Part shown: positions 1 to 59,012 of the stretch, piece by piece | Position numbering within the stretch: position 1 is the stretch's first letter | How the letters are laid out: each line of letters begins with the position of its first letter | Origin: a virus | IMG/VR virus record: IMGVR_UViG_3300009151_000061 | Location: 1 to 64,000 of that record | Reading direction: 5' to 3' (one strand) | Length of the DNA stretch: 64,000 nt | Notes under the pieces: model-generated | The model's input: only the letters and a program-made list of their open reading frames with translations | Told to the model about the DNA's origin: nothing | Database searches by the model: none | Position numbers and translations under genes: made by a program

Positions 1-453
1 AGATCTGGTGTTATATATCACGCTTATAATCTATTTCCACGCGTTATACCTACAGTTGATATTGCTCCTCTAAATGAGGACTCTACTCAGGTTCTTTTAG
101 CGAAGAAATATGAGGAAGATAAGTTTAGATTTATAGGTGGGTTCGTATTACCAAGTGATTCAAGTATTACAACATCACTTAGAAGAGTTTACTATAAAGA
201 AACAGGTGGAAACTCTGAACCCAATGATTTCAAGTTCTTGGATCAAGTTAAGATAGAAGACTGGAGATACAGGGGAGAGGACGATAAAGTAATGACTTCA
301 TTCTATACTTGTAAAAGATCTTGGGGTTCAATAACTCCTTCTGATGATATTATGGAGTTAAAATGGGTGGATATTGATGAGAAGTGGATGAAAGATAATA
401 TGGTAGAAGAACATTCAACTTTAATTGATATTTTATTCAGTTTTCTTAAATAA
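1..453 (+). CDS. C-terminal Nudix domain of a probable bifunctional NMN adenylyltransferase/Nudix protein (NadM-Nudix type), 5' truncated by window edge
   Basis: Frame 1 is open from base 1: RSGVIY...PTVDIA...LLAKK...FRFIGGFVLPSD...KETGG...IEDWRYR...SDDIMELKW. Lies directly upstream of NAMPT. The NMNAT domain is inferred to be outside the window. Confidence 0.75.
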   Translation, partial: RSGVIYHAYNLFPRVIPTVDIAPLNEDSTQVLLAKKYEEDKFRFIGGFVLPSDSSITTSLRRVYYKETGGNSEPNDFKFLDQVKIEDWRYRGEDDKVMTSFYTCKRSWGSITPSDDIMELKWVDIDEKWMKDNMVEEHSTLIDILFSFLK

Positions 454-499: not shown

Positions 500-583
500 G
501 CGGGGGTGTTGTAATGGTAGCCAAGAGGGACTTAAAATCCCTTGTTCTGAAAGAACGTGTGGGTTCGAGTCCCACCCTCCGCA
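500..583 (+). tRNA. tRNA-Leu (anticodon TAA), long variable arm, CCA not encoded
   Basis: Acceptor GCGGGGG/CCTCCGC-A; anticodon arm AGGGA-CTTAAAA-TCCCT; T arm GTGGG-TTCGAGT-CCCAC. Confidence 0.95.
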
Positions 584-602
584 CAAATCAAATCATAATA
601 CT

Positions 603-2027
603 ATGAGCAATAACATTTGTACCATGAGTGATAGTTATAAAGCTACTCACTGGAAACAATATCCTAAAGGAACCACAAAAGTTTATTCTTATCTTGAGTC
701 TCGTGGTGGTAAGTTCAACAATACACTTTTCTATGGTCTTCAATATTTTATCAAAAAGTATCTTGCCGGTCAAGTAGTAACCGAAGACAAAATACAAAGA
801 GCTAAAAAATTATGGGATGCTCACCTCGGACCTGGTCTTTTCAACGAAGCTGGTTGGAGACATATCCTCACCGTACATGGTGGTAAACTCCCTATAAAAA
901 TTAAAGCTGTTCCAGAAGGACTAAACATACCAGTAAAAAATGTCTTAATGACCGTTGAGAATACTGATGACCAAGTTCCTTGGTTAACAAACTATATTGA
1001 AACCTTACTTTTACAAGTATGGTACCCGACTACCGTCTCTACTTTATCAAGAGAAATTAAGAAAGTACTCATCAAGTATCTTCAAAAGACTACTTCTTAT
1101 ACAAAAGAAGAAATAAAGGGTATAGTCAACTTTATGTTACACGACTTTGGTTATCGTGGTGTATCTTCTGTTGAAAGTGCTGGTCTTGGTGGTTCAGCTC
1201 ATATCATCAACTTTATGGGTACTGATACTGTTGCAGCTATTGAAATGGCTCAAGAGTTTTATAATACCAATAACATCTTAGCCTTCTCTATCCCAGCTTC
1301 TGAACACTCTACGATTACATCTTGGGGTGAACCTAATGAAGTAAAAGCAATGGAGAATATGTTGGATCAATATCCTACAGGTCTTGTAGCTTGTGTATCT
1401 GACTCATTTGATATCATCAAAGCTTGTGGTATGTATTGGGGTGGAGTTCTTAGAACTAAAATCCTTCAAAGGGATGGTAGACTTGTAGTTCGTCCTGACA
1501 GTGGAGACCCAGTTCAAACATTGAAACAAGTATTTAATATTCTTTGGAATCGTTTCGGTGGTACTACCAACGAAAAAGGTTTCAAGGTACTTGACCCACA
1601 CATTCGTGTAATACAAGGTGATGGGGTTAACTATGAGTCAATCATAGAAATATTGGATATGATGGTTAATGAAGGATTCTCTGTTGAGAACATTGCATTC
1701 GGTATGGGTGGAGCACTCTTACAGAAGGTAGATAGGGATACTCAGAAGTTCGCCTTCAAGTGTTCAAGTATCATAATCAATGGAGAAGAAGCTGACGTTC
1801 AGAAGAACCCTATTGAGATTGATGCTAACGGTCAGAGAGTTCAAAGTTTCAAGAAATCAAAAGCTGGTCGATTGAAACTTATGAAGGATACTGAGGGTAA
1901 CTTCTACACACAAGAACATTCCCACGACGAGGAAGGGGATTGTTTAATCACTGTATTCTTAAATGGTGACATTCTTAAAGAATGGACGTTTGAGGAAATC
2001 CGTGAAAGAGCAGAACTCGACTTCTAA
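603..2027 (+). CDS. nadV: Nicotinamide phosphoribosyltransferase (NAMPT)
   Basis: Motifs DSYKATHWKQYP, LHDFGYRG, SIPASEHS, VSDSFD, VVRPDSGDP, IQGDG, FGMGGALLQ. Confidence 0.95.
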   Translation: MSNNICTMSDSYKATHWKQYPKGTTKVYSYLESRGGKFNNTLFYGLQYFIKKYLAGQVVTEDKIQRAKKLWDAHLGPGLFNEAGWRHILTVHGGKLPIKIKAVPEGLNIPVKNVLMTVENTDDQVPWLTNYIETLLLQVWYPTTVSTLSREIKKVLIKYLQKTTSYTKEEIKGIVNFMLHDFGYRGVSSVESAGLGGSAHIINFMGTDTVAAIEMAQEFYNTNNILAFSIPASEHSTITSWGEPNEVKAMENMLDQYPTGLVACVSDSFDIIKACGMYWGGVLRTKILQRDGRLVVRPDSGDPVQTLKQVFNILWNRFGGTTNEKGFKVLDPHIRVIQGDGVNYESIIEILDMMVNEGFSVENIAFGMGGALLQKVDRDTQKFAFKCSSIIINGEEADVQKNPIEIDANGQRVQSFKKSKAGRLKLMKDTEGNFYTQEHSHDEEGDCLITVFLNGDILKEWTFEEIRERAELDF

Positions 2028-2053
2028 AAAAGAGACCTTCGGGTCTCTTTTTT
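2026..2053 (+). terminator. Intrinsic terminator
   Basis: AAAAAAGAGACC-TTCG-GGTCTCTTTTTT. Confidence 0.9.
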
Positions 2054-2091
2054 GTTTTAAAACAAATCATAGTTGAGAACATAAAAGAGAT

Positions 2092-2865
2092 ATGGCAACT
2101 AAACTATCCTTAAAATTTAATAAATCGAAGTTTTCCGATCTTGTAGATAAGTTACAAGACCTAACCTCTATTGAAGACGTTATCAAACTTAAAATACAAA
2201 AAGATACCACTCTTATCTACACAATGTTAAGTAGTGAAACACAAGTATTAGCTCTTAAAAGTTATCTAATAAATACATCAGATTATATTGAAAACTTTAA
2301 TGAAGACACCACATTTGACTTTATTATTACCTCAGCTCCAAGATTTGTAAAGAATCTAAAATTCTTTACAAGTGATAACCCAATCAAAATGGATATTATT
2401 TACAAACCTCAACCAGAAGATGAAGAAACAATGCACGTTAGATCAGCTCAGTTTACGAATGGTAAGTTGAAAATTTCGTGTGTAGGTGGTGAGGAGTATA
2501 AGATTAAGGATATTAAAAAAGAACTCTTAAATCAAAGATTAAATATCAAGAACTCTAAATGGGATTTCAAGATATCCCAATCCGATTTTAACGATGTTAA
2601 AAAACTTTGTTCTATTAATAATGAAGAAAGGATTTTAAACATATCAGTAACAGATGGTTTAGTTACTATGAATGAATCTGCTAAATGGGAGTTAGAAATA
2701 GACACAATCACTCCAATGAATACCAATCTAATCTTTGGTAAGAAATACCTATCAAATATAAATGATGGAGACTTTATTCAGTTTTATGTATTTGAAACCT
2801 TTATCTTAGTTAAAGATGATATATCAAATTTGATGCTTAGCTTTGAGACAAACTTTGATGATTAA
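2092..2865 (+). CDS. Putative DNA sliding clamp (gp45/PCNA-like)
   Basis: 257 aa with a two-domain alpha/beta pattern typical of clamps; replication-class promoter upstream; no decisive motif. Confidence 0.45.
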   Translation: MATKLSLKFNKSKFSDLVDKLQDLTSIEDVIKLKIQKDTTLIYTMLSSETQVLALKSYLINTSDYIENFNEDTTFDFIITSAPRFVKNLKFFTSDNPIKMDIIYKPQPEDEETMHVRSAQFTNGKLKISCVGGEEYKIKDIKKELLNQRLNIKNSKWDFKISQSDFNDVKKLCSINNEERILNISVTDGLVTMNESAKWELEIDTITPMNTNLIFGKKYLSNINDGDFIQFYVFETFILVKDDISNLMLSFETNFDD

Positions 2866-3608
2866 TCACTTCTTTTATTTCCTTTAGAAATATTTTCCCT
2901 CCAGAAAAGCGGTTGAAAATTAGTATAATGGTTCAATTTATATATATCTTCCTCAGTCTCAGCCCAACTGATTGGGGTTTTATGGTCTAATTGCCAATAA
3001 GTAGCATAGTTCTCCCAACACATCTCCTCCGTGAATTGCGACTCAATATAAACTTTAAACTCCTCAAAAGAGCAACCTAATATCTGTACTGTCTTTTTTG
3101 ATTTTTGTGTATATCGAGATTTAAAAGATTGTGATATTAGTGTTCTTATAGAACAAGTAAGTCTATATAAAGGATTATTTTTCTTTTTATTTCTAACATA
3201 CTCCCTGTTTAATGAATTGAAATATTCTTTCTTCTCATTCCTCTTTTTCCTTCTTCTTTCATTTACAAATTCTTTGTTATCTTTATTATAGTCACTAATT
3301 CTTTTTTTCACCCTTTCTTTATTATTCTGATACCATATTTTCTTTTTTTCACTAATATCTTTTTTATTTTGATCCCTATAGTTTCTATGGTAATCTTCAT
3401 CATATTTCTCAGAATTATATTTACTTTTATATTCTTTTATTTTTTCTAAATTTTCATCATAATAACTTCTCACCCTTTCTTTAATAATATCCTTGTTTTT
3501 TTGATAATATTTTTTTCTGTATTCTTTAATACATGATTTACATTTTTTACCTCTTTTTGGAAATTCAGATATTTCTTTCTCAACCAAGCAGAAATTACAT
3601 CTCACCAT
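2862..3608 (-). CDS. Free-standing HNH-type endonuclease (zinc-finger, Lys-rich helical repeat, HNH-like C-terminus)
   Basis: CxxC...CxxC; ILGCSFEEFK; WQLDHKTP...NHYTNFQPL...N; paralogue of 29544 and 50775. Confidence 0.8.
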   Translation of the reverse strand: MVRCNFCLVEKEISEFPKRGKKCKSCIKEYRKKYYQKNKDIIKERVRSYYDENLEKIKEYKSKYNSEKYDEDYHRNYRDQNKKDISEKKKIWYQNNKERVKKRISDYNKDNKEFVNERRRKKRNEKKEYFNSLNREYVRNKKKNNPLYRLTCSIRTLISQSFKSRYTQKSKKTVQILGCSFEEFKVYIESQFTEEMCWENYATYWQLDHKTPISWAETEEDIYKLNHYTNFQPLFWRENISKGNKRSD

Positions 3609-3714
3609 AATATTCTTTTTTATTTATATATTAAATATAATGTCTTTCGAGCAAGATTTGTCCTAAGATGTTTCAGAAATTAAATTGGATTATATAGTTT
3701 AATATATACCTTTG

Positions 3715-4578
3715 ATGAAACACCTTAAACATTTTGAAGCTGTGCATTACGGGGATAAACATTTTGGTCAACTAATCAAGGATTACTTTCCTTGGTATAA
3801 CTATACTCGTTCACTTAACAATTTACCAGAAGTAAATAAGTTAATGAATGATACATTCCGCAACTCTCTACCCGAAGATTTAATCAATTTGACTTTCCTA
3901 TGGGGAGATCAAAATAATGGATATTATCATGTAATAATGGGTAGAACTCGATCATTTTATCAAACTGATAGTTTATTGATTGATCCTCAGGAACATGAAG
4001 CTATAGTTTCACTATACTCTCACCACTCCGAAGGAGATAGTTATCATACAAGAACTGAACATGAAGTTGATGATTGGGATGATGTTGAGAAGTTGAGACT
4101 TATGCACACTCTTGGTAGAAAGACTTTAGCTGAGAAATATTGGAATGTAAAATCACAAATACTAGAGTTATTTGATTATCTTCTCTATGAAATAGAAGAC
4201 AATGACTCTAACCCAAATGATATTTATATCTCTGATTTCAAATACTTAATGGATAAAGAAGGTATATCTCCCGATTATATATCAAATCCAAGAAATGTAA
4301 CTGATGAAGATGTTTACCTTTTTGTTAAGGATTATCAAGGTAGTGAGAATTTCTTTCATTCATTAGGATCTTATTTACAAAAAAATGGTAAACTAACGGA
4401 ACGTCAAATAGACGCTTGTAGAAAAACAGTTTCACAAGATTTTGTCAAAAATAAAATGGCAAATAAAATAGGAATGGTATTTAGGTATGCTAATCCTAAC
4501 ATGCCTACTATCCTAAGACTTAAAAGTAAAGGATACTTCGTATTGGATATTGAAGGTTTAATAATCGTTTATAAATAA
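3715..4578 (+). CDS. Hypothetical protein with MKHLKHFE N-terminal tag
   Basis: ATG at 3715 after late-type motif at 3699. Confidence 0.7.
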   Translation: MKHLKHFEAVHYGDKHFGQLIKDYFPWYNYTRSLNNLPEVNKLMNDTFRNSLPEDLINLTFLWGDQNNGYYHVIMGRTRSFYQTDSLLIDPQEHEAIVSLYSHHSEGDSYHTRTEHEVDDWDDVEKLRLMHTLGRKTLAEKYWNVKSQILELFDYLLYEIEDNDSNPNDIYISDFKYLMDKEGISPDYISNPRNVTDEDVYLFVKDYQGSENFFHSLGSYLQKNGKLTERQIDACRKTVSQDFVKNKMANKIGMVFRYANPNMPTILRLKSKGYFVLDIEGLIIVYK

Positions 4579-4586
4579 AATAATAT

Positions 4587-4766
4587 ATGGAAAATGTACT
4601 TAATTTTGAGGACTTCGTAAACGAATCCTATAACAAACCAAGAAAGGGAATGAAAAGACGTTGGAGCGTCAAATATAAGAAATCTATTAACTGCTCTAAT
4701 CCAAAAGGATTTTCCCAGAAAAATTACTGTAGAAGAAAAAAGAGAGGTGGTGGGTATAAGTCTTAA
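4587..4766 (+). CDS. Small basic hypothetical protein (59 aa), absent from ORF track
   Basis: MENVLNFEDFVNES...RRWSVKYKKSINCSNPKGFSQKNYCRRKKRGGGYKS*; fills the intergenic gap exactly. Confidence 0.75.
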   Translation: MENVLNFEDFVNESYNKPRKGMKRRWSVKYKKSINCSNPKGFSQKNYCRRKKRGGGYKS

Positions 4767-4767
4767 A

Positions 4768-5496
4768 CTACTTTATGAAATCCTCAAATTTTATCACCGA
4801 TTCTTTTAACATCATATCAAACTCCTTATCAAAATCTTTTGGATCCTGTTTATATCCTGATTTAGATTCATCTAATGCATCCTCCGTCCATTGATAAGAC
4901 CAAAATAAACTATCCGGTATTTTGAACCCAAAGAAGGTTAAAACCTTCTTTTCTAGTTTAATAGCTTCCACACCATTCCAGTTATGACCAACTGATACAA
5001 CACCTACTTCTATATCTTCAATTATATTCTTCTCACCCAGAGTTGCCCATCTGTTTTCAAGCCAAGTTAATCTCTCAACCAATTTTGAATAAACAGCATT
5101 CATCTTACCCCATCTTATAGACCCAAAAAATATGACTGTGTCAGATGTTAATAACTCATTTACTACTTTATATAACTCATCATCACTATTATTAAATGAA
5201 GCCCAACACCTTAATTCACCGGTTTTATCCTTAACACTTTTCAATAAAGCTTCCTTTACACCACATCCATTACCACTCCTACCACTAACATTACCCTCAC
5301 ATTGATGAATGTTTAACTTAGATACATCTATAATAGTAACAACACTTTTACCCAACTCTTCTTGCATCTTATAAGCAAGAGCCGATGATTTAGGAATCTC
5401 ATCATGACCATCCCATCTATTTGAAGTTAAAAGAAAAAGTATTTTTTCTTTTCCTCTAAGGTGACTTATCGTTTTATCGTATTTAATTTTAGACAT
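4768..5496 (-). CDS. Flavodoxin-fold / NADPH-dependent FMN reductase family protein
   Basis: LLTSNR...KSSALA, LNIHQCEG, SDTVIFFGSIRWG, GHNWNG. Confidence 0.75.
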   Translation of the reverse strand: MSKIKYDKTISHLRGKEKILFLLTSNRWDGHDEIPKSSALAYKMQEELGKSVVTIIDVSKLNIHQCEGNVSGRSGNGCGVKEALLKSVKDKTGELRCWASFNNSDDELYKVVNELLTSDTVIFFGSIRWGKMNAVYSKLVERLTWLENRWATLGEKNIIEDIEVGVVSVGHNWNGVEAIKLEKKVLTFFGFKIPDSLFWSYQWTEDALDESKSGYKQDPKDFDKEFDMMLKESVIKFEDFIK

Positions 5497-5906
5497 TACT
5501 TAACTAATTTTTTATCTTCTAGGAACTTCATTAGACCTTCCCACTGGTCACATTTGTAATAATCAAATCTACTTCCAACAGATTGGTACTTTTGCTCACA
5601 CACATACCACCACTCATCCTTAACCTTATTAAAGAAATAAACTTTATCCGAGAAGCCTGAAGAAATGTGGTCTCCAAATCCAACTTCTATACAAGTATTA
5701 TTAAATAATAGAGAAAGATAATTTTTATCAACTATGTTATCCTCAAAAAAATAATACTCCTTATCAGTTATCTTCTCAAGACTTTCATATTCTCTAGTTA
5801 ATAAGTTTCTTCTATCTTTAGACGTTTTTTCATCATATTCATCTATACCAATCTCTTGATAAAAATCCTCTCTATTAAACGCCTCGTATAACTTTAAATA
5901 TAACAT
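5496..5906 (-). CDS. Hypothetical protein, DEWWY...YKCDQWEGL family
   Basis: Likely start MLYLKLYEAF at 5906 after late motif at 5914-5923; paralogue of 48746. Confidence 0.7.
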   Translation of the reverse strand: MLYLKLYEAFNREDFYQEIGIDEYDEKTSKDRRNLLTREYESLEKITDKEYYFFEDNIVDKNYLSLLFNNTCIEVGFGDHISSGFSDKVYFFNKVKDEWWYVCEQKYQSVGSRFDYYKCDQWEGLMKFLEDKKLVK

Positions 5907-5919
5907 ATAAGTGTATATA

Positions 5920-6687
5920 TTAAATCTCAAAATCAATCATATCACGCTTAGCAGAGTTTATACATCTCTTGGTTATACACAAATTAGATATGTCCGCAAT
6001 CTCCGAAGCCGGTATATTATTTTTGAAACCATAATAAACAGATCTTTTATGATCTATAGTTGGGTATCCATTAGATATTGGAGAATCATTAATATAACAT
6101 TTTATATACTCACCATCATAATAATCTTTACCATCCCAATTTTCATACAGTACCTTACTTGATTTTCTTGTTAGTCTTCTTACCTCATTCTTGTAAATTC
6201 TAAAAGAAATTCTATTTATCTCAGTATATCTATCCTCTGACTTCTCCACATCAACAATACTACATTTACCTACTTTACATTTCTTACAAGTATAGATACC
6301 ATCTCTCTTTTTATTTGAAATATACTTGTTAAATTGTATGTTAACTACACTCCCACAGACTTCACATATTGGATCTACCCTTACATGAGATACACTTGGT
6401 AAGTCTAAAACATTTATTTTTAGTTTGTTATTTATTATAGCATTGTACCCCAATTTTAGGTAGTGAGTTACGTTTCTATATGAAATATTTATTTCAATGG
6501 ATTCGTTTAAGAACCCCCCATCATTTTTGTTAATCTCGATCTTTGATATAAAATCATTTTCCTCTTTTCTATCTCTATCCGATCTTTTGTAGATTTTTTC
6601 AGAACTTTTACAGTTTTTGGAGCAGTATTTTTTACAAGTCCGACCAACAACCACATTATTACACTTTCTATAATTACATATTCTCAT
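5920..6687 (-). CDS. Putative HNH homing endonuclease
   Basis: N-terminal Cys cluster, CEVC...CKKC, PTIDHKRS...NLCITKRCINSAK; likely start 6687. Confidence 0.7.
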   Translation of the reverse strand: MRICNYRKCNNVVVGRTCKKYCSKNCKSSEKIYKRSDRDRKEENDFISKIEINKNDGGFLNESIEINISYRNVTHYLKLGYNAIINNKLKINVLDLPSVSHVRVDPICEVCGSVVNIQFNKYISNKKRDGIYTCKKCKVGKCSIVDVEKSEDRYTEINRISFRIYKNEVRRLTRKSSKVLYENWDGKDYYDGEYIKCYINDSPISNGYPTIDHKRSVYYGFKNNIPASEIADISNLCITKRCINSAKRDMIDFEI

Positions 6688-6729
6688 ATGGTATATATAA
6701 AAAACAAAAGCTCCTGTTTTATACCCCAC

Positions 6730-6757
6730 TAACTTTTTATCTATATTTTAGTATAAA
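6730..6757 (+). promoter_or_regulatory. AAC-N18-TATAAA promoter upstream of polymerase gene
   Basis: TAAC (6730-33), 18 nt, TATAAA (6752-57); same spacing at about 10 loci. Confidence 0.6.
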
Positions 6758-6776
6758 TAAAAAAGAAAAATATTTC

Positions 6777-8010
6777 ATGACAAGGGAACAAAAGTTAGAA
6801 AAACTTGAGTCACTAAAAAACCAAGCGAGCGAGCTGAAGAGGGAAGTAGACTACTACAATTCCTTACAGCTCGCTCTTTTTGAACCCCCTCTGATTACTC
6901 AGAGGGGGTAAATGACTAAAATTAGTATTAAATGGGAGTTACGGAGCATTCGCTACGAGTTATTTCATCCTGTTTAACAATCATGTAGCGGGAACAATTA
7001 CGGCACAAGGTCGTACACTTACACAAACTATGCACAAGGTTAATGAGGACTATTGGTATAACCAATGGCACCTTGATACCGAGTTGCACCAAAAAATGAA
7101 TCTTAAAAACGTTACTCCAATTCAACGTGGTGAGGAAGTTAGTATTTATGCTGATACCGACTCATTATTCGTATCGTTTAAACCAGCGATGGATCACTGT
7201 GAATGGAAACATGCTTATTCTACAGAGTTAGAGTTTATACATGAGTTAGACAAACAACGTTATGCTGGATACTTCAAGAAGTGTCTTGAGGAACACGCAG
7301 ATGAATATGGTGTTGATAACAAGCAGGATTTTGAGCTTGAACGTATATCAGAATCAATCATCAACATTGCTAAGAAGAAATATATTCAACATATCGTATT
7401 TGAGGACGGCATTCCATATGACCGTTTAACTTATATGTATCCTAAAGGAGTTGAACTTGTTCGATCTTCTACACCTCTTTTTGCAAGGGATAAGATTGTG
7501 GGTATTGTTAAATACTTATTTTCTAATCCGGACACGTTTAACATTAGGGAGTTATTAAAGCTAGTTAAGAACTTGAAGAAAGAATTTGATCTATGTGTAC
7601 CAGATAAGATTGACGAGATCTGTATGCAGTCTTCTGTTAATAAGTATGAAGAAAAAGTACTTCAAGATACACCGACTATAATAACGGTTCCCGGAGCTCA
7701 CTTCTCTGTTAAGTCTGCAGCTTATCATAATAACTTATTACATAAGAATAAAGCTTTACAGTCTAAGTATGAGTTTATTAAATCGGGTACAAAGATTAAG
7801 TATTATTACTGTAAGGATACTTCTATAAATGAGGTTTTTGCTTATACTCGTGGTTCTTATCCGATTGAGTTCGCGCCTCAGATAGACCTATCGACCCAGT
7901 TTGAGAAATGTATCTTATCACCTATTAACTCGATTATAGCACCACTTGGACTTCCGGAGATTACTAAAAGGTTGAGTGTTGTTATGGATATTTTTGGTAG
8001 TGGATTTTAA
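6777..8010 (+). CDS. Family B DNA polymerase, C-terminal subunit of a split (gp43B-like) enzyme, interrupted by a 40-nt insert
   Basis: 6777-6878 encodes MTREQ...YYNSLQLAL. 6919 onward, in another frame, encodes KLVLNGSYGAF...TITAQGR...YADTDS...AKKKY...KGVELVRSS. Joining them restores motif B; motif C is intact. No exonuclease domain or motif A. Confidence 0.9.
6879..6918 (+). other. 40-nt coding-gap insert with 11-bp hairpin; candidate translational bypass element
   Basis: TTTGA-ACCCCCTCTGA-TTAC-TCAGAGGGGGT-AAATGACTA; stops in all three frames (TGA 6881, TGA 6892/6913, TAA 6909). Confidence 0.8.
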
Positions 8011-8045
8011 TATAAAGCATTTAAAAATCTTAATATATACCCTTA

Positions 8046-8900
8046 ATGAAAAGATGGACGGAATTTCTTAACGAAAACTTATTTACACCGGTTAGTCAAC
8101 CGGATAGGGATTTGTTATATAGAAAGATTAACGAACTTAAAAGATGGTTGCATTTACCAGAGGGTTTAGATTTAAGAAATGTGATAGATAAGATATTCAG
8201 AGAATATGGATATGTGAATCAACTTACTCCAGAAGAGATAGAACAATTTGGTAAAGGGTTGGAATCTCTTAAGCTTACTGATATGTCTAACAGTTATATC
8301 ACTTGGAAGTTAAATCAAGCAATGCCGTATGGTATTGAGAAGTTGACTTTAGTTAGAGATGCTAATGGAGATTGGGATTTTTTAAATAAGTTAAATACTA
8401 ACTATACCGCACTCGCTGAGTTATTAACTGAATTAATAATGAGGGGTATAGAGTATAATAAAGAAAAGGGGATGGTAATCTATGAAAAGGTGATTGCTAA
8501 TCCACAAGAAGGATTGATGGGTATTAAGAAATACTTAGAAAGACTTATAGTTTTATATTTTATTGAAAGAGGTAAAGGATTGGATGATTTCCGAATGTTT
8601 ACTTTAAAGATAAAAGAACTATCAAAACTAGGTGAGGAAGCTGAGGAAACGATAGCTGAGTTACTCAGAGAGAATGGATTTGAGGTTGTTTACCAAGGTG
8701 GTAATGGAGACTTTATTGATATGATTTTTGGATGTGATATGATAGTAAAACATGAAAAGTGGGGTTATAAATCTGTTCAGGTTAAGAATAAGTTTCCTGG
8801 ATGGAAGTCATTATCCCATTATAAAGTAGACTGGCTGGGACTTGCTTATCCTAATATTGAGTTAATTGATTTTAAGACGCAACAACCGGTTCGTCTATAA
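8046..8900 (+). CDS. Hypothetical protein with C-terminal PD-(D/E)XK-like nuclease domain
   Basis: GEEAEE...GFEV...GCDMIV...SVQVK; N-terminal MKRWTEFLNE tag. Confidence 0.55.
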   Translation: MKRWTEFLNENLFTPVSQPDRDLLYRKINELKRWLHLPEGLDLRNVIDKIFREYGYVNQLTPEEIEQFGKGLESLKLTDMSNSYITWKLNQAMPYGIEKLTLVRDANGDWDFLNKLNTNYTALAELLTELIMRGIEYNKEKGMVIYEKVIANPQEGLMGIKKYLERLIVLYFIERGKGLDDFRMFTLKIKELSKLGEEAEETIAELLRENGFEVVYQGGNGDFIDMIFGCDMIVKHEKWGYKSVQVKNKFPGWKSLSHYKVDWLGLAYPNIELIDFKTQQPVRL

Positions 8901-26900: not shown

Positions 26901-27355
26901 GATCCGTGCGCTAATATATAAGTAGAGTCACTGAATAAATCTAAAGATTTTTTATTAGTATCTAAAGTATTGTATGATACCTTTGTACCTGGTATTGAAT
27001 CAAACGCATATGCTATACCTGGGTGACCAGATGATCCAATATCATTAACCCCCTCTGTTACTGGGGAGAATAACCCACCATTTTCATTCATTACAATAGA
27101 GTCTAAACAAAGAAACTCTATTAGATTAATATTATCCCTACCATATATTATTTTATAATTAGACCAAAACTTATTCCAGTTAGATGGATTTTTTAGTTTG
27201 ACTCCAGTCACCTTCCCGTTCGATACGGTAAGCCAATTATCTTTTTCAGCAATCTTGGTATTAAACCAATCAGCAAATCCTTTAGATCCAATTTTTTGGA
27301 AGAAAGCATCAATATCGGATACACTTGAGAATGTTGTTGTTCTATATTTAGGCAT
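23984..27355 (-). CDS. Baseplate hub-like protein with two GH19 (chitinase/lysozyme-like) domains
   Basis: FRGRGFVQTTGR near N-terminus; IAAFLSQVSIES...YKGRGLLQITGRNNY...INGGYNG at C-terminus; hub-like centre (LTGEWLIVDISY). Confidence 0.75.
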   Translation of the reverse strand: MPKYRTTTFSSVSDIDAFFQKIGSKGFADWFNTKIAEKDNWLTVSNGKVTGVKLKNPSNWNKFWSNYKIIYGRDNINLIEFLCLDSIVMNENGGLFSPVTEGVNDIGSSGHPGIAYAFDSIPGTKVSYNTLDTNKKSLDLFSDSTYILAHGSKPFGSILKNTTNTAWSGTVFPTGFATPTPSSKAVDPSGIPNTFITEADFFKFRGRGFVQTTGRGAYKPIISYVLSYTGNDSVILNVKKNWSQYGGNLDKIASASTNTQWDDLFQKTNSIVANYAVYVHNKSGGAYAKKGIDYLYIDPSQSDNNLKDAIRKVALAISGKGAKKYADLFYARVMQQLTLIEGTEAGPIPPSSTPTGATSSQTPQQAQEEGREARTGNDINSNQNKPKNLDGKILTNVNIFPATIKPNPIVMPLPSGEDAQDEIVQGLGNIPFIWYNSYQIEYNDIRFFNLSIQEHLPTVKIIFFDSLNLMKDKAFPLDDSKIEVFINARSEQVKPIFLQFKITKFSINGSEYSISGVLDVNYLYLKTFKSYNSTSFYTLQSICKESGLGFNSNFDDTNDSMKWLNTGQRSIEFIESIVETSYKSDQSFLYFYIDYYYNLNYIDIEKELSRNIKEDLGIGNIGIEDALKTSNPEIVSKLFLTNDLSMAESNIFFESYKVLNNSTATSIKEGYKTKMKYYDEKAKSFLIFDVGSITDTDQKSIILKGAPNDESFYNDNTQYLYTGRIDTDNTHQNYHYSYVQNTRNIVDLQKVGLEIVMKTPNFNIYRFQKVFLFLSNQISTPSAPQINNRLTGEWLIVDISYNYDGKSFRQVVKLLKRELELSPEELAKEPTQNQPAQNTGGEKTSNDNGVINENPVVSATQSTTPGATSSTPIDDTQFPLTKDIFRELYKARPKIVELWYEPLKNALIKNGITSKERIAAFLSQVSIESGFIFYTTERGISAGSQYEARKDLGNTKTGDGVKYKGRGLLQITGRNNYSKASQYFNQDFVNDTSLLSAENPVHQRYADTPDQIQNAINASVWFWLKGSVRGDLNKYADKMDIKKPFNFGGTTIEDLPENVEQSKKAVKKYGIFTTKNPNDIATYFSPNDTNFVNFTMICLGINGGYNGFQSRCKNWLQIREYFK

Positions 27356-45700: not shown

Positions 45701-46603
45701 ATTGTATAACCAAGGAAGCTTTGACTTAATCTGATCCTCAGTTAATGGGGTAAATTGACTAGATGAAGTACCAACTGTATAAACCGCAAATACAACATTA
45801 TCTGGTTTACCGTCATCATCTGTTGGTATGGATTGTGTAGCATTAGAATCAGGTAGAGTTATTGAATCATCTTTAATATATCTATACTCATATTTATAAT
45901 CAACCCCCTCTTCATACTGACCTGTTGAGTAAACTATAGACTGTGTTATAGATGTATATCCTTGTGGTAAGTAATCATATGTAGTAACATCTGATTGACT
46001 TGATTGGGACAGACCTGTATTAGAGTTAGAAGTTGTAGTAGTATCTGATTTTCTTATATTGGATAGACTATTTAATTTACCTAAAGAATTACTGAAACTA
46101 TTAGTACCTCCATATCCAAGAGCGGCTGGATTTCCAATCGGCTTAGCAGATGAACCACCAAATGCTAAAACCCTTGCGATTATATCTTCAATAAGGACGA
46201 AATTGTTTAAAACTATTTTAGCTACCTCTATGTAAGGTTTCTGTGTCTCAAATATAGAAGTAATAAGAGCTTTCTCCAAGGATTTAAGACCACCTAGATT
46301 ACCACTACTAACCCCCATTGATATATCACCTGGGGGTACTTGTATTCTACCGTCTTTAAGGTATTGTTCATGTGGTCTATTAAGAGTGGTTCCAGTGGCT
46401 TTTGTAAATGTTTTTAACTGGTTAACATTATTCATTTTACCGATGTTTTTCATTAACATCTTTTTCTGAATACCATCAGCAATACCAATATCACCTTGGG
46501 CGAATTTAATTAAATACTGGATATCTGTAACAAGTAGAACTGGTTTAGGAGAAGGTTCTCGTGAATCACGAGGGTAATTTACAAGGGTAAAATTTATAGC
46601 CAT
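42788..46603 (-). CDS. Large putative virion structural protein (1271 aa)
   Basis: S/T/N-rich; internal repeat YSTG.Y..GVDY.Y.Y; amphipathic helices. Confidence 0.6.
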   Translation of the reverse strand: MAINFTLVNYPRDSREPSPKPVLLVTDIQYLIKFAQGDIGIADGIQKKMLMKNIGKMNNVNQLKTFTKATGTTLNRPHEQYLKDGRIQVPPGDISMGVSSGNLGGLKSLEKALITSIFETQKPYIEVAKIVLNNFVLIEDIIARVLAFGGSSAKPIGNPAALGYGGTNSFSNSLGKLNSLSNIRKSDTTTTSNSNTGLSQSSQSDVTTYDYLPQGYTSITQSIVYSTGQYEEGVDYKYEYRYIKDDSITLPDSNATQSIPTDDDGKPDNVVFAVYTVGTSSSQFTPLTEDQIKSKLPWLYNSGKWYGNYNQITTNNEVARNYYLQYFLDDASKKMDKQGLTQSQKDSALTQLSTMLTTVGTQSETPNSGVPSMKGITMLQSHIDNIIKYGFLPISNNSNTNGLGYVPSQYYNINYAYEAKQISGPSGSIWIDPDSEYDMKFIKCDSSTDIKYTDISGHEVSTTIVRFIKNNLTISLSNNDYFYYSLSGNNLNIPTTGTVKEISWDNIDLKQSYLLEMRYYKIPDEFKSGYSFVDNYYTYVLTNNNGVYTLQRGVYSNGVFSVDIYYNPNFLTFPNGKVLFFNNLKFDYVQVYANDLVSLLPSDIQQNIVSIKLTDLSISQNRVVIPPTEIRVKDSTNPFGKIIDRNQITNKQLQIDTLYSKGYYGTPMQGVDSNNQTVDANQDIEQIYRYMTSEDDTETYYIVEGVLSSKNKNPISSIIDQAEGSIGGGGNYHIKDAIKAIKPFISLMIQIFTKLFPAIDLLLDLIKNPSTFILDIITDKFGTGVGLSHFGFFSKDFINDLKKVGSKSKTNPTPSDVKEMKSYVKNSSLKNYVYITDAGVAKFILDGVSSVKLFGDLIKLPGLKFGLKVQLSSLLTNTPQIPFLPILGGSVPSTDKTLAEILGISHDIINQQMKLSVLANSTSYSSNLSSNTFTTQAGSNVYSEDISIQYSTGVYIPGVDYTYIYVTDYVRGLLVKAGEYEDQGDYPSAIDALNDAQKSDPNNQFIKDKISELKKLLAKSLEGLALAGIQPILNFVLSMVTLPLKLVLGIVQYIMDFFKGLTNPFELPSKIVDFVSFKWMSDFFNPTVPTSLFGLSGINFDIQKYLLEWIPGAKANSKSSFDMNQISKLPWTNLPTYNLDQIKSMIFPNSSIPKMIPLLQLNGILGIFEGIFNGIVDFMWALFGIGGIINPPPHIKLTKETNDDLSPLDIMNLLNGNYFSSGTQSFNPNIQPSNFIYEIKTSDGRDIRDLNRDELQKWMEENKNFQFIFDF

Positions 46604-58742: not shown

Positions 58743-58984
58743 TGAAACATTTAAGAAAGATAAATGAAAATAGAGAAGATATAGTAAATTCATCTTTTCA
58801 CTTCCTAATCCACTCTGGTGGACACAAATTGTGGCAAGATAAATTCAACAAAGGAATCGAATTTTTAAAATCTCTTAATCTTACAGATGAACAATATAAG
58901 GAGTTGGGAAAATTATGGGAAACCTACGAAGATTTTGTAATAGAAAGGGAAGACACTAAGGACGCATACAATGAAGAATATTAA
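58742..58984 (+). CDS. Hypothetical protein (MKHLRKINE tag)
   Basis: 80 aa ORF. Confidence 0.7.
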   Translation: MKHLRKINENREDIVNSSFHFLIHSGGHKLWQDKFNKGIEFLKSLNLTDEQYKELGKLWETYEDFVIEREDTKDAYNEEY

Positions 58985-59012
58985 AAAGACTCAGATTACT
59001 CTGAGTCTTTTT
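58983..59012. terminator. Bidirectional intrinsic terminator
   Basis: AAAAAGACTCAGA-TTAC-TCTGAGTCTTTTT. Confidence 0.85.

Follow-up and report, generated by a model that had tools for sequence, protein, structure and literature searches.

A hairpin-containing coding gap in motif B of a freshwater phage DNA polymerase gene, a candidate site of programmed ribosomal bypass

The interrupted polymerase gene

The window analysed here is a 64,000-nt stretch of a 72-kb contig (positions 1 to 64,000 of IMG/VR record IMGVR_UViG_3300009151_000061). The host of the element is a large uncultured freshwater phage, and the interrupted gene is a DNA polymerase, with the interruption inside the essential motif B. 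The features of the locus are given in Table 1.

Table 1. Features of the polymerase locus in the window
Feature	Position	Strand	Basis or remarks
Free-standing HNH-like endonuclease gene (putative), 269 aa	5920..6729	-	Divergent, start 48 nt upstream of the polymerase start; phrog_5104, 7.2e-15
First coding segment of the polymerase C-terminal-half gene	6777..6878	+	34 codons, MTREQK...YYNSLQLAL; colinear with the N-termini of the uninterrupted L001 and L002 ORFs
Presumed take-off codon CTT (Leu)	6876..6878	+	Last codon in common with uninterrupted homologues; CTT/CTC in 11/11 distinct A1 inserts
40-nt coding gap, stops in three frames	6879..6918	+	Missing in L001, L002 and 18 IMG/VR relatives
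RNA hairpin, 11 bp, loop TTAC, C-rich 5' arm and G-rich 3' arm	6884..6909	+	Fold, and covariation over 25 distinct hairpins
TAA ending the unhopped 44-codon product	6909..6911	+	Sequence, ORF list
Presumed landing codon CTA (Leu), 7 nt past the G-run	6916..6918	+	First CUN triplet 3' of the hairpin; CTA in 11/11 distinct A1 inserts
Resumed polymerase frame, KLVLNGSYG (motif B)...YADTDS (motif C)...thumb	6919..8010	+	Stop 8008-8010; Pfam and phrog matches, dN/dS

The ORF that begins at ATG 6777 has 44 codons, reading ...YYNSLQLAL up to CTT 6876-78 and then FEPPLITQRG before the TAA at 6909-11. The +1 frame from CTA 6916 reads LKLVLNGSYGAF...ITAQGR...YADTDS and runs to 8010, and this downstream frame matches Pfam DNA_pol_B (1e-14) and phrog_1918 (4.5e-48). 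Between the two there are stops in every frame (TGA 6881 in frame +2, TGA 6892 and TGA 6913 in frame +1, and TAA 6909 in frame 0) so that no single frameshift can join them. Excising 40 nt rebuilds QLALKLVLNGSYG, precisely the sequence present in the uninterrupted 474-aa ORFs of two huge phages in GenBank (L001 and L002). The initial annotation had described the two frames, the hairpin, the stops in three frames and the rebuilding of motif B by removal of 40 nt, and all of these hold on rechecking the sequence. The resumed frame in the window contains no ATG, GTG or TTG upstream of 7030, and motif B sits between the gap and this first possible start.

The gene encodes the C-terminal half of a family-B DNA polymerase that is split in two. 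The N-terminal half is absent from the 72-kb contig, which CheckV estimates to be 26% complete, and is a single ORF in all four near-complete relatives. In one of the relatives, G001 (98% complete), the gapped gene is the sole copy of the C-terminal half and there is one ORF for the N-terminal exonuclease half approximately 130 kb away.

The gap is real DNA and recurs in relatives

The initial annotation had proposed mapping raw reads across the insert. All 24 runs listed by a run search are of DNA, and contigs of these were compared with the window. In run X1, which is probably the source sample, one contig of 1767 nt covers 6500-7500 and matches it with 0 differences. A different study supplied run X2, in which two contigs, 6676-6904 and 6881-7065, also with 0 differences, cover both halves of the insert between them. 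Short-read assemblies can break at hairpins, and both X2 contigs end within the hairpin, as might be expected if the insert were an assembly or sequencing artefact or the contig a chimera. Against this, the same sequence is present in contigs of two runs from different studies, and another 30 IMG/VR contigs, as well as loose ends of runs X3 and X7, hold homologous but different gaps. The chance of an artefact is negligible and the 40-nt insert is real DNA.

Alleles that lack the insert, which had also been suggested as a comparison, were found in L001 and L002 and in IMG/VR. Among 52 IMG/VR relatives, 30 have gaps of 36-48 nt and 18 are gap-less; the other rows were left unclassified, two because they are 5'-truncated (L011 and L037) and two because the motif was not located by the patterns used (L048 and L053). 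The gaps fall into five site classes (A1, A2, B, C and D) within approximately 40 nt of motif B, inside the sequence that is rebuilt by the excision. For the hairpin and codon counts identical gaps were collapsed, which left 25 distinct gaps.

In all 11 distinct inserts at A1, the site of the gap in the window, CTT or CTC precedes the gap and CTA is the first CUN triplet past the hairpin. Over classes A1, A2, B and C together, the take-off and landing triplets are synonymous and have equal first two bases in 18/18 distinct gaps (Leu, CUU/CUC to CUA; Ala, GCU to GCU/GCA; Val, GUU to GUA/GUU; and Ser, UCU to UCA), and in every case the landing triplet is the first matching triplet 3' of the hairpin. 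Class D, in which the gap lies after NGSY, differs: five of its seven distinct gaps have no Tyr-matching triplet before the resume codon, and the remaining two have only UAA (TAT/TAA, with the first two bases alike).

The spacing is fixed on one side of the hairpin and loose on the other. The C-run begins 5-7 nt past the take-off codon in 25/25 distinct gaps (6 nt in the window) and the stem reaches that codon in L038 only, whereas the length of the 3' spacer ranges between 5 and 14 nt. In 21/25 a stop lies within 0-1 codons of take-off. In the window TTT GAA follow the take-off codon and the zero frame stays open across the hairpin for another 10 codons, up to TAA 6909; L004, L016 and L017 resemble the window in having no stop directly past take-off. 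The G-run ends 5-9 nt ahead of the landing codon in 23/25 gaps (7 nt in the window). Shine-Dalgarno motifs are not enriched in the contig (1-2 of 72 ORF starts per motif, which is the background level), and because its genes show no Shine-Dalgarno use it is doubtful that the G-run acts as a mini Shine-Dalgarno sequence.

The downstream ORFs of the gap-bearing relatives are intact and 350-455 aa long, except at three loci with shorter frames (L009, L022 and L041), of which L009 has a second break, at motif C. Past the gap, dN/dS is 0.03-0.11 in nine pairs of gap-bearing alleles versus 0.08-0.09 in two gap-less pairs; selection on the resumed frame is strongly purifying. The initial annotation had stated that decay of the downstream gene together with an intact copy elsewhere would count against a decoded gap; what was found is a conserved frame and, in G001, no second copy. 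Given these dN/dS values, the position of motif B before 7030 and the single copy in G001, decoding of the gene must extend across the gap.

The gap contains a covarying RNA hairpin

The window hairpin can be drawn with 11 bp and a 4-nt loop or with 10 bp and a 6-nt loop, has a folding energy of -20.7 kcal/mol and exceeds all others in the 72-kb contig in the G+C content of its stem. The 101-nt fold around the insert has a z-score of -4.78 relative to shuffled sequences. A covarying hairpin of 9-12 bp is present in 25/25 distinct gaps. Its first three pairs are always C-G with the C on the 5' side, while the inner positions show 4-6 pair types each and 17 G-U wobbles over the 25 hairpins; nine of the 25 have GNRA or UUCG loops. 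In the alignment 96.5% of cells are paired, compared with 71.3% in shuffles, and there are compensatory changes at 8 of 11 pairs. The covariation score is 0.623, compared with 0.14 for shuffles and 0.115 or less when the partners are slid. This pattern of substitution indicates that the hairpin works at the level of sense-strand RNA.

We searched for further copies with two covariance models, R1, which captures 5 bp, and R2, which was built from seven hairpins of the same geometry. In 55 sources (the window and 54 loci) the models found the motif-B gap only, save for two weak hits in the window, at 27040-27075 (a 4-bp chance match) and 46303-46344. In five large relatives, R2 found beyond motif B just intergenic terminators with an A-run, a hairpin and a T-run. 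A search of the window for the hairpin pattern with up to three mismatches gave 6885-6908 alone. The pattern and covariance searches place the element in motif B only, and we rejected the idea that it is dispersed. A terminator was also rejected: there is no terminator-like site within 6500-7200, and the T-run before the hairpin and the A-rich run after it are the reverse of the arrangement in the contig's bidirectional terminators.

The gap is linked to a putative endonuclease gene

The ORF divergent from the polymerase gene has homologues among which DUF7487 repeats were found in 12 of 15 aligned. No match was obtained for the window ORF in Pfam even at E <= 10, for the family profile among PDB sequences, or for the structural model in Foldseek at E <= 0.001. 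For the C-terminal domain of the AlphaFold model (residues 162-269), the top VIA-align matches are HNH nucleases with moderate Z-scores of 4.3-6.0 (5h0o, 6.0; 4h9d, 5.9), and a C-terminal block, D226-H227...N249...N258, is invariant in 14 homologues. These structural matches and this motif suggest that the product is an HNH endonuclease.

HNH-like homologues are present at the same place in 21/30 gap-bearing relatives and in 0/20 gap-less ones. With L012, where a GIY-YIG gene takes the place of the HNH-like gene, a divergent gene of one of the two types lies just upstream in 22/30 gap-bearing versus 0/20 gap-less loci. A protein tree of 50 rows, restricted to rows of 200 aa or more, requires a minimum of 19 changes of gap state. 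L029 and L036, with flanks that are 91-94% identical, differ by an 858-nt endonuclease segment and a 39-nt gap. Pairs that differ in gap state also lose identity on the 5' side of the gap. L017 (class D) and L018 (class A2) share 99% identity in the 600 nt downstream and 73% in the 93 nt upstream; the upstream and downstream values are 76% versus 93% for L029/L038 and 66% versus 83% for L005/L006. In blastn comparisons of L017/L018, L026/L030 and L054/L039 homology resumes at the 3' end of the gap or a few bases past it. The gap thus behaves as part of a mobile cassette linked to the endonuclease gene. The cassette would consist of the divergent endonuclease gene, the first 34 polymerase codons and the gap. 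By analogy with MobA and gene 60 of T4, the gap would interrupt the target of the endonuclease in motif-B DNA and so protect the carrier.

How the gap may be decoded

We consider that the gap is probably a programmed ribosomal bypass like that of gene 60, forming part of a homing-endonuclease cassette, and put the probability of this at about 0.65. With CUU 6876-78 in the P site, the hairpin, 6 nt downstream, would stand at the mRNA entrance and block translocation. Peptidyl-tRNA-Leu would then unpair from CUU, the ribosome would slide across the hairpin and the A-rich 3' spacer, and the same tRNA would re-pair with CUA 6916-18, the first CUN triplet past the hairpin. Decoding would restart at AAA 6919 to give a single polypeptide with an intact motif B, QLAL-KLVLNGSYG, and a junction peptide EVDYYNSLQLALK followed by LVLNGSYGAF.... 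What the sequences show is a real, conserved, covarying and mobile gap that is linked to an endonuclease gene and followed by a frame under selection; the hop itself, the identity of the tRNA and the role in immunity are inferred.

Bypass is favoured by the codon pairs at A1 and at three other site classes and by the covariation of the hairpin as sense-strand RNA. The hop of tRNA-Leu from CUU to CUA that the initial annotation proposed is thereby supported by comparative data, and its caveat also stands, that the window codons are only synonymous and that no stop directly follows take-off. The fixed distance to the C-run, the variable 3' spacer, the early stops and the synonymous take-off and landing triplets appear to be signatures of translation. 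Some features count against bypass. The window has no stop after take-off, the hairpin excludes the take-off codon, unlike that of gene 60, and no dedicated nascent-peptide extension is evident, since the 34 N-terminal codons are ordinary polymerase sequence common to gap-less alleles. Simple re-pairing in the P site does not explain all members of the family because of the codon mismatch in class D. It is conceivable that the flanking triplets match because insertion left a short target-site duplication. We also considered the codon immediately preceding the stop (Phe, Ala, Val or Arg) as the take-off site and rejected it, as inspection showed no in-frame landing match.

If the ribosome does not cross the gap, the segment might be removed from the RNA as a micro-intron of 36-48 nt, with the ends joined by enzymes of the phage or the host. 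In favour of this are the covariation of the hairpin as RNA and the fact that excision needs no matching codons, which suits the five of seven class D gaps that lack them; in the window several 40-nt cut registers would yield the same protein. We nevertheless think excision unlikely. The distance on the 5' side is fixed and the 3' boundary is variable (5-14 nt plus 3 nt from the hairpin), which fits a scanning ribosome better than a measuring nuclease, and excision leaves unexplained both the stops within 0-1 codons of the junction and the synonymous flanking triplets at A1, A2, B and C. We know of no bacterial or phage system that removes a 40-nt segment of this kind. The core of a group I or II intron cannot fit in 40 nt, and group I, group II and bulge-helix-bulge introns were rejected: the element is a single 26-nt hairpin within the 40 nt, and no Rfam family matches at E <= 1 within 5800-8100.

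It is less likely still that the two parts are never joined, and that a peptide of 34-44 aa and a downstream product are made separately, by re-initiation, by a start at ATG 6912 with a +1 slip or by a start at ATG 7030, or that the allele is dead. The polymerase is already split into distant genes, and a start at ATG 6912 followed by a slip on AAAA could yield MTK-LVLNG. However, ATG 6912 is present in only 4/11 distinct A1 inserts, for which reason the restart and slip suggested in the initial annotation were rejected, and the resumed frame offers no start codon before 7030, upstream of which the motif B codons are conserved. Neither the low dN/dS nor the presence of the gapped gene as the only copy in a 98%-complete relative is expected of separate products or a dead allele, and 30/52 relatives retain gaps, with downstream ORFs that are intact at all but the three loci with shorter frames.

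Comparison with known bypass systems

The bypass cassette of T4 gene 60 is situated at the edge of the MobA HNH element and gives protection from nicking by MobA (Manning and Atkins, bioRxiv 10.1101/2022.08.31.505936, which cites Bonocora et al. 2011 for this system). The same preprint gives the mini Shine-Dalgarno of the gene 60 type as GAG, GGG, GGA or AGG, 5-7 nt 5' of the landing codon. Compared feature by feature with that account, the motif-B gaps share several properties with gene 60. In each system an essential replication gene is split, and its downstream half has a short untranslatable gap after approximately 30-45 codons; a stable stem-loop, with loops of the UUCG or GNRA type, stands at the start of this gap. 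Usual in both are a stop right past take-off, take-off and landing codons that are synonymous, A/U-rich sequence in the 3' part and a G-rich triplet located 5-9 nt ahead of landing. Both systems also have a linked free-standing HNH gene (HNH-like here) of approximately 270 aa, a gap at the edge of a mobile block and genomes that keep the gap after loss of the endonuclease. The differences are as follows. The host gene here is a family-B polymerase, at motif B, whereas in T4 it is a topoisomerase, with the MobA element in the large-subunit gene. There are five positions and five take-off amino acids here and one position, give or take a codon, there. Our hairpins begin 5-7 nt past the take-off codon, which in gene 60 lies within the hairpin, and here no N-terminal extension or nascent-peptide signal borne by the element is evident. 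Finally, the HNH-like gene here is divergent, on the opposite strand (with GIY-YIG in L012), and class D is without matched codons.

A second phage example is the terminase of Streptomyces phage phiHau3, in which a very short bypass is triggered by a rare UUA and a junction peptide made in E. coli confirmed the hop (PMC10732093). It resembles the present case in that the gene belongs to a phage, requires a hop and has a stem-loop close to it. In contrast, the phiHau3 hop is very short and has a rare-codon trigger, and the available sections of PMC10732093 describe no homing-endonuclease cassette.

Searches of the full-text literature, which covered main texts, turned up no paper on a bypass gap either in the DNA polymerase of any phage or in huge or jumbo phages.

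Outside phages, mitochondrial 'byp' elements were reportedly found in Magnusiomyces capitatus (Lang et al., in 2014), dispersed over many genes of one genome. Like the gaps described here, byps are G+C-rich hairpins of short length that interrupt A+T-rich coding sequence at numerous positions; their take-off and landing triplets match, and take-off is followed by a stop or by a codon that cannot be decoded. The element described here differs in being confined to motif B of the polymerase, as judged by the covariance search of five large relatives. We know of no report of byps alongside endonuclease genes.

To our knowledge, efficient long-range bypass has been demonstrated at the bench essentially only for T4 gene 60, whose natural relatives are all in one topoisomerase site. 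We regard as evenly balanced the broader proposal that the motif-B gaps form a second, independently evolved family of ribosome hopping. Its members would be a minimal, portable cassette of 36-48 nt (a T-rich lead, a hairpin clamped by C5/G5 and an A-rich tail) at five or more motif positions, using at least four and perhaps five take-off tRNAs (Leu, Ala, Val, Ser and Tyr), with no dedicated nascent-peptide signal and, at one site, no cognate landing codon, and serving the homing endonucleases of huge phages as an immunity insert within their own target. If true, this second family would provide dozens of natural variants with several codons, different take-off tRNAs and a much simpler signal, amounting to a natural mutational series for the needs of take-off, sliding and landing. 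Combining a homing endonuclease with a bypass gap that confers immunity would then be a recurring evolutionary solution and not an oddity of T4. Additionally, gene callers truncate such polymerases (in the window the ORF is called from 7030), so the annotation of this replication gene in huge phages is systematically wrong at the motif-B site.

The interrupted polymerase gene

The window covers the opening 64 kb of an IMG/VR viral contig of 72,423 nt (26% complete by CheckV) whose closest named relatives in blastn are 'uncultured phage' genomes of 634-642 kb. The ORF from 6777, for the polymerase C-terminal half, begins MTREQK...EVDYYNSLQLAL, crosses a hairpin past the codon CTT and ends at TAA 6909. 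The +1 frame from CTA reads LKLVLNGSYGAF...ITAQGR...YADTDS and is open to 8010. This resumed frame matches Pfam DNA_pol_B (1e-14) and phrog_1918 (4.5e-48), a 'DNA polymerase' profile of 382 positions. Position 43 of the profile pairs with the K of KLVLNG, the second residue of the resumed frame, so there is room for about 40 residues upstream. The first ATG, GTG or TTG of the downstream frame is at 7030, past motif B. The initial annotation claimed that stops in all three frames exclude a simple frameshift, and the sequence bears this out: every frame has a stop within the 40 nt between CTT and AAA 6919, so the two parts are not joinable by any single frameshift.

The insert has sequence support. 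In run X1, which is probably from the source sample, a contig covers 6500-7500 with 0 differences. Run X2 belongs to a different study, and two of its contigs cover 6676-6904 and 6881-7065, likewise with 0 differences. Further variants of such inserts are found in loose ends of runs X3 and X7. Uninterrupted alleles, which the initial annotation proposed to seek in related phages, also exist. In two GenBank huge phages (L001 and L002) the gene is a single 474-aa ORF, ...YYNA(L/M)QLALKLVLNGSYG..., without the gap.

Coordinates of features in the window and in related loci
Locus	Feature	Position	Strand	Match
Window	Open-ended ORF	1-453		
Window	tRNA-Leu(UAA)	500-584		
Window	474-aa ORF	603-2027		
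Window	257-aa ORF	2092-2865		
Window	Second nuclease-like gene	2862-3608	minus	phrog_1035 'endonuclease VII' (5e-15)
Window	269-aa ORF directly upstream of polymerase gene	5920-6729	opposite to polymerase gene	
Window	CTT, putative take-off codon	6876-6878		
Window	CTA, putative landing codon	6916-6918		
Window	Bidirectional terminator	58983-59012		
L009	Polymerase gene with second break	1061-4191		
L017	IF-3 homologue	2272-2790		Pfam IF3_N + IF3_C
L034	IF-3 homologue	2533-2835		Pfam IF3_C only
L036	IF-3 homologue	2419-2850		Pfam IF3_N + IF3_C
L038	IF-3 homologue	2419-2850		Pfam IF3_N + IF3_C
L039	IF-3 homologue	2327-2866		Pfam IF3_N + IF3_C

A family of gaps at motif B

A peptide-seeded scan of IMG/VR gathered 52 loci, of which 30 have a gap within the same ~40-nt stretch, 18 are gap-less and four are unclassifiable (L011 and L037 because of truncation, L048 and L053 because the motif was not found in them). 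The gap follows QLAL in 13 loci and the window (class A1), QLA in six (A2), KLV in two (B), NGS in one (C) and NGSY in eight (D). Identical gaps were collapsed for geometry counts, leaving 25 distinct gaps of 36-48 nt. The hairpin C-run starts 5-7 nt past the last shared codon in all 25 (6 nt in 19); the G-run and the landing triplet are a variable 5-14 nt apart. There is a zero-frame stop 0-1 codons past the last shared codon in 21 of the 25, the exceptions being the window, L004, L016 and L017.

The pairing pattern indicates that the gap hairpin is an RNA-level feature. Among the 25 distinct hairpins, the three outer pairs are C-G throughout, the 5' arm supplying the C, and pairs 6-11 show four to six pair types. 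The 17 G-U wobbles would read as C-A mismatches on the opposite strand. Nine have a GNRA or UUCG loop. Energies range from -16.4 to -33.7 kcal/mol (window, -20.7). In the model-fitted alignment, which leans towards structure as it was fitted to structure and includes some reverse-strand rows of near-palindromes, paired cells make up 96.5% (71.3% in shuffles), compensatory change occurs at 8 of 11 pairs and the covariation score is 0.623 (0.14 in shuffles, at most 0.115 with slid partners). An independent pair count on the 25 hairpins agrees with the covariation result.

The gapped gene appears to be in use

For pairs with estimable dS, gap-bearing allele pairs among them, dN/dS downstream of the gaps is 0.029-0.109, with synonymous sites saturated in two window pairs; two gap-less pairs give 0.082 and 0.094. 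In three gap-bearing loci (L009, L022 and L041) the downstream frame halts after ~187 aa; elsewhere the downstream ORF is intact, at 350-455 aa. In G001, a relative of 464 kb and 98% completeness, the class D gapped gene is the sole match to the polymerase C-terminal half; an intact copy elsewhere, a possibility raised in the initial annotation, was not found in this genome. The exonuclease domain is in one 501-aa ORF ~130 kb away, and one such ORF is present in four of four near-complete relatives. In this clade, therefore, the two halves of the polymerase have separate, distant genes, and the gapped one is not a decayed spare.

In L009 the same gene is broken again, differently, just past motif C: an ORF ends ...YADTDS then CFSETLV..., a free-standing 369-aa ORF follows, and the next ORF has ...ILVHN then SLFVSFKP. 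The arrangement suggests a split intein that has an endonuclease gene of its own, as in the 'fractured gene' layout of PMC2677866. L022 and L041 probably share this type of break. L050 and L051 also have a shorter frame, but these are gap-less outgroup rows.

Codon pairing and the case for ribosomal bypass

In all 18 distinct gaps of classes A1, A2, B and C, the triplet before the gap and the one ahead of the resume codon encode the same amino acid and agree in their first two bases: CUU or CUC with CUA (11 gaps), GCU with GCU or GCA (four), GUU with GUA or GUU (two) and UCU with UCA (one). The landing triplet is the earliest such triplet past the hairpin in all 18. Take-off codons mostly end in U and landing codons often in A, which would fit a single tRNA with wobble U. 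The only tRNA gene in the window is that for tRNA-Leu(UAA); it lies between an open-ended ORF and a 474-aa ORF. From the general geometry of the ribosome, a hairpin 5-7 nt past the take-off codon would be at the mRNA entrance when that codon is in the P site.

The polymerase half has to be produced, and this requires skipping of the gap; we favour ribosomal bypass (probability about 0.65). Excision of the gap from the RNA is unlikely, because the stops, the paired codons and a spacing fixed on the 5' side but variable on the 3' side all count against it. It is less likely still that the two parts give separate products or that the allele is dead, the latter being at odds with the apparent lack of decay and with the sole C-terminal-half match in G001. 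An artefact can practically be dismissed, as contigs of runs X1 and X2 from different studies carry the identical sequence.

The features of the gap parallel those of the cassette in gene 60, the phage T4 bypass gene, for which the preprint of Manning and Atkins (bioRxiv 10.1101/2022.08.31.505936) lists paired codons, a stop or hungry codon, a stable stem-loop, an A/U-rich 3' part and, 5-7 nt ahead of the landing site, a G-rich triplet. Some features do not fit bypass. In class D the resume codon is GGA, and in none of the seven distinct gaps does a Tyr triplet precede it; UAA (two gaps), AAC (two), GAC, CAA and AGC are found instead. No stop follows take-off in the window and three relatives, the hairpin begins after the take-off codon and excludes it, and the gapped gene has no special N-terminal extension. 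On the whole contig, Shine-Dalgarno motifs precede the 72 ORF starts at no more than background frequency, so an anti-SD role of the G-run is doubtful; this also suggests that the host initiates SD-independently.

Mobility of the gap and the adjoining endonuclease gene

In a tree built from the part of the protein beyond all gap sites (50 rows, two unclassified rows not counted), the gap state changes at least 19 times, and presence versus absence at least 11 times. Near-identical polymerases have different gap sites in L017 (D) and L018 (A2), L012 (A1) and L013 (C), and L005 (A1) and L006 (D). Identity in L017/L018 is 73% over 93 nt upstream of the gap and 99% over 600 nt downstream; the values are 76% and 93% for L029/L038 and 66% and 83% for L005/L006. 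Upstream of the gap the window resembles L004 and L015 more closely than it does downstream. In L017/L018, L026/L030 and L054/L039, blastn homology restarts at the 3' end of the gap or a few bases past it.

Of 30 gap-bearing loci, 21 have a homologue of the 269-aa ORF at the corresponding position, against 0 of 20 gap-less loci, and L012 has a GIY-YIG/NUMOD3 gene there instead. No nuclease family was found in the immediately upstream ORFs of 13 gap-less loci, which match IF-3, a Dam-type methylase and a terminase-like domain. L029 (class D) equals its gap-less partner L036 plus an 858-nt endonuclease segment and a 39-nt gap, with flanks 91-94% identical; L038 has the gap without the endonuclease. 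In the upstream ORF family, DUF7487 repeats occur in 12 of 15 aligned ORFs and a D-H...N...N block is invariant, and the best matches of the modelled C-terminal domain of the window member are HNH nucleases at moderate Z (6.0, 5.9, 5.0 and 4.9). Among T4-like phages it has distant homologues that are free-standing genes; one, located between the genes for tail sheath and tube, carries an HNH endonuclease annotation.

Taken together, the endonuclease gene, the first 34 codons and the gap behave as a homing cassette with the gap as its 3' edge. This layout agrees with the account of Manning and Atkins (bioRxiv 10.1101/2022.08.31.505936), where the gene 60 gap shields the carrier of the HNH homing endonuclease MobA from nicking. 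If each gap disrupts the same endonuclease target, persistence at five positions within ~40 nt would be expected. Bonocora et al. reportedly gave the same account of MobA and the gene 60 gap, as cited by Manning and Atkins. The polymerase element would work like the gene 60 cassette but lies outside that family, as it is in a different gene and at several sites, its hairpin is placed differently, no nascent-peptide module is evident and its endonuclease gene is divergent. No description of it was found in a full-text literature search, and the word 'polymerase' is absent from the text of that preprint.

There is ~3.9 kb between the 257-aa ORF of the window and the polymerase gene. Relatives without the endonuclease gene have a 257-262-aa ORF 0.1-1 kb upstream of the polymerase gene. 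The 2862-6729 block also contains a second nuclease-like gene and four further ORFs without a family match, and the spot seems to have been invaded repeatedly. A homologue of translation initiation factor IF-3 is immediately upstream of the C-terminal-half gene in both gap-bearing and gap-less relatives; none was found at the corresponding place of the window.

Finally, intergenic bidirectional terminators (A-run, hairpin, T-run) close in sequence to the gap hairpin are present in the window, L058 and L060. That of the window shares the loop ATTACT with the gap hairpin, and the stem in relatives is CCCTCTGA-loop-TCAGAGGG. The gap hairpin may be descended from such terminators.
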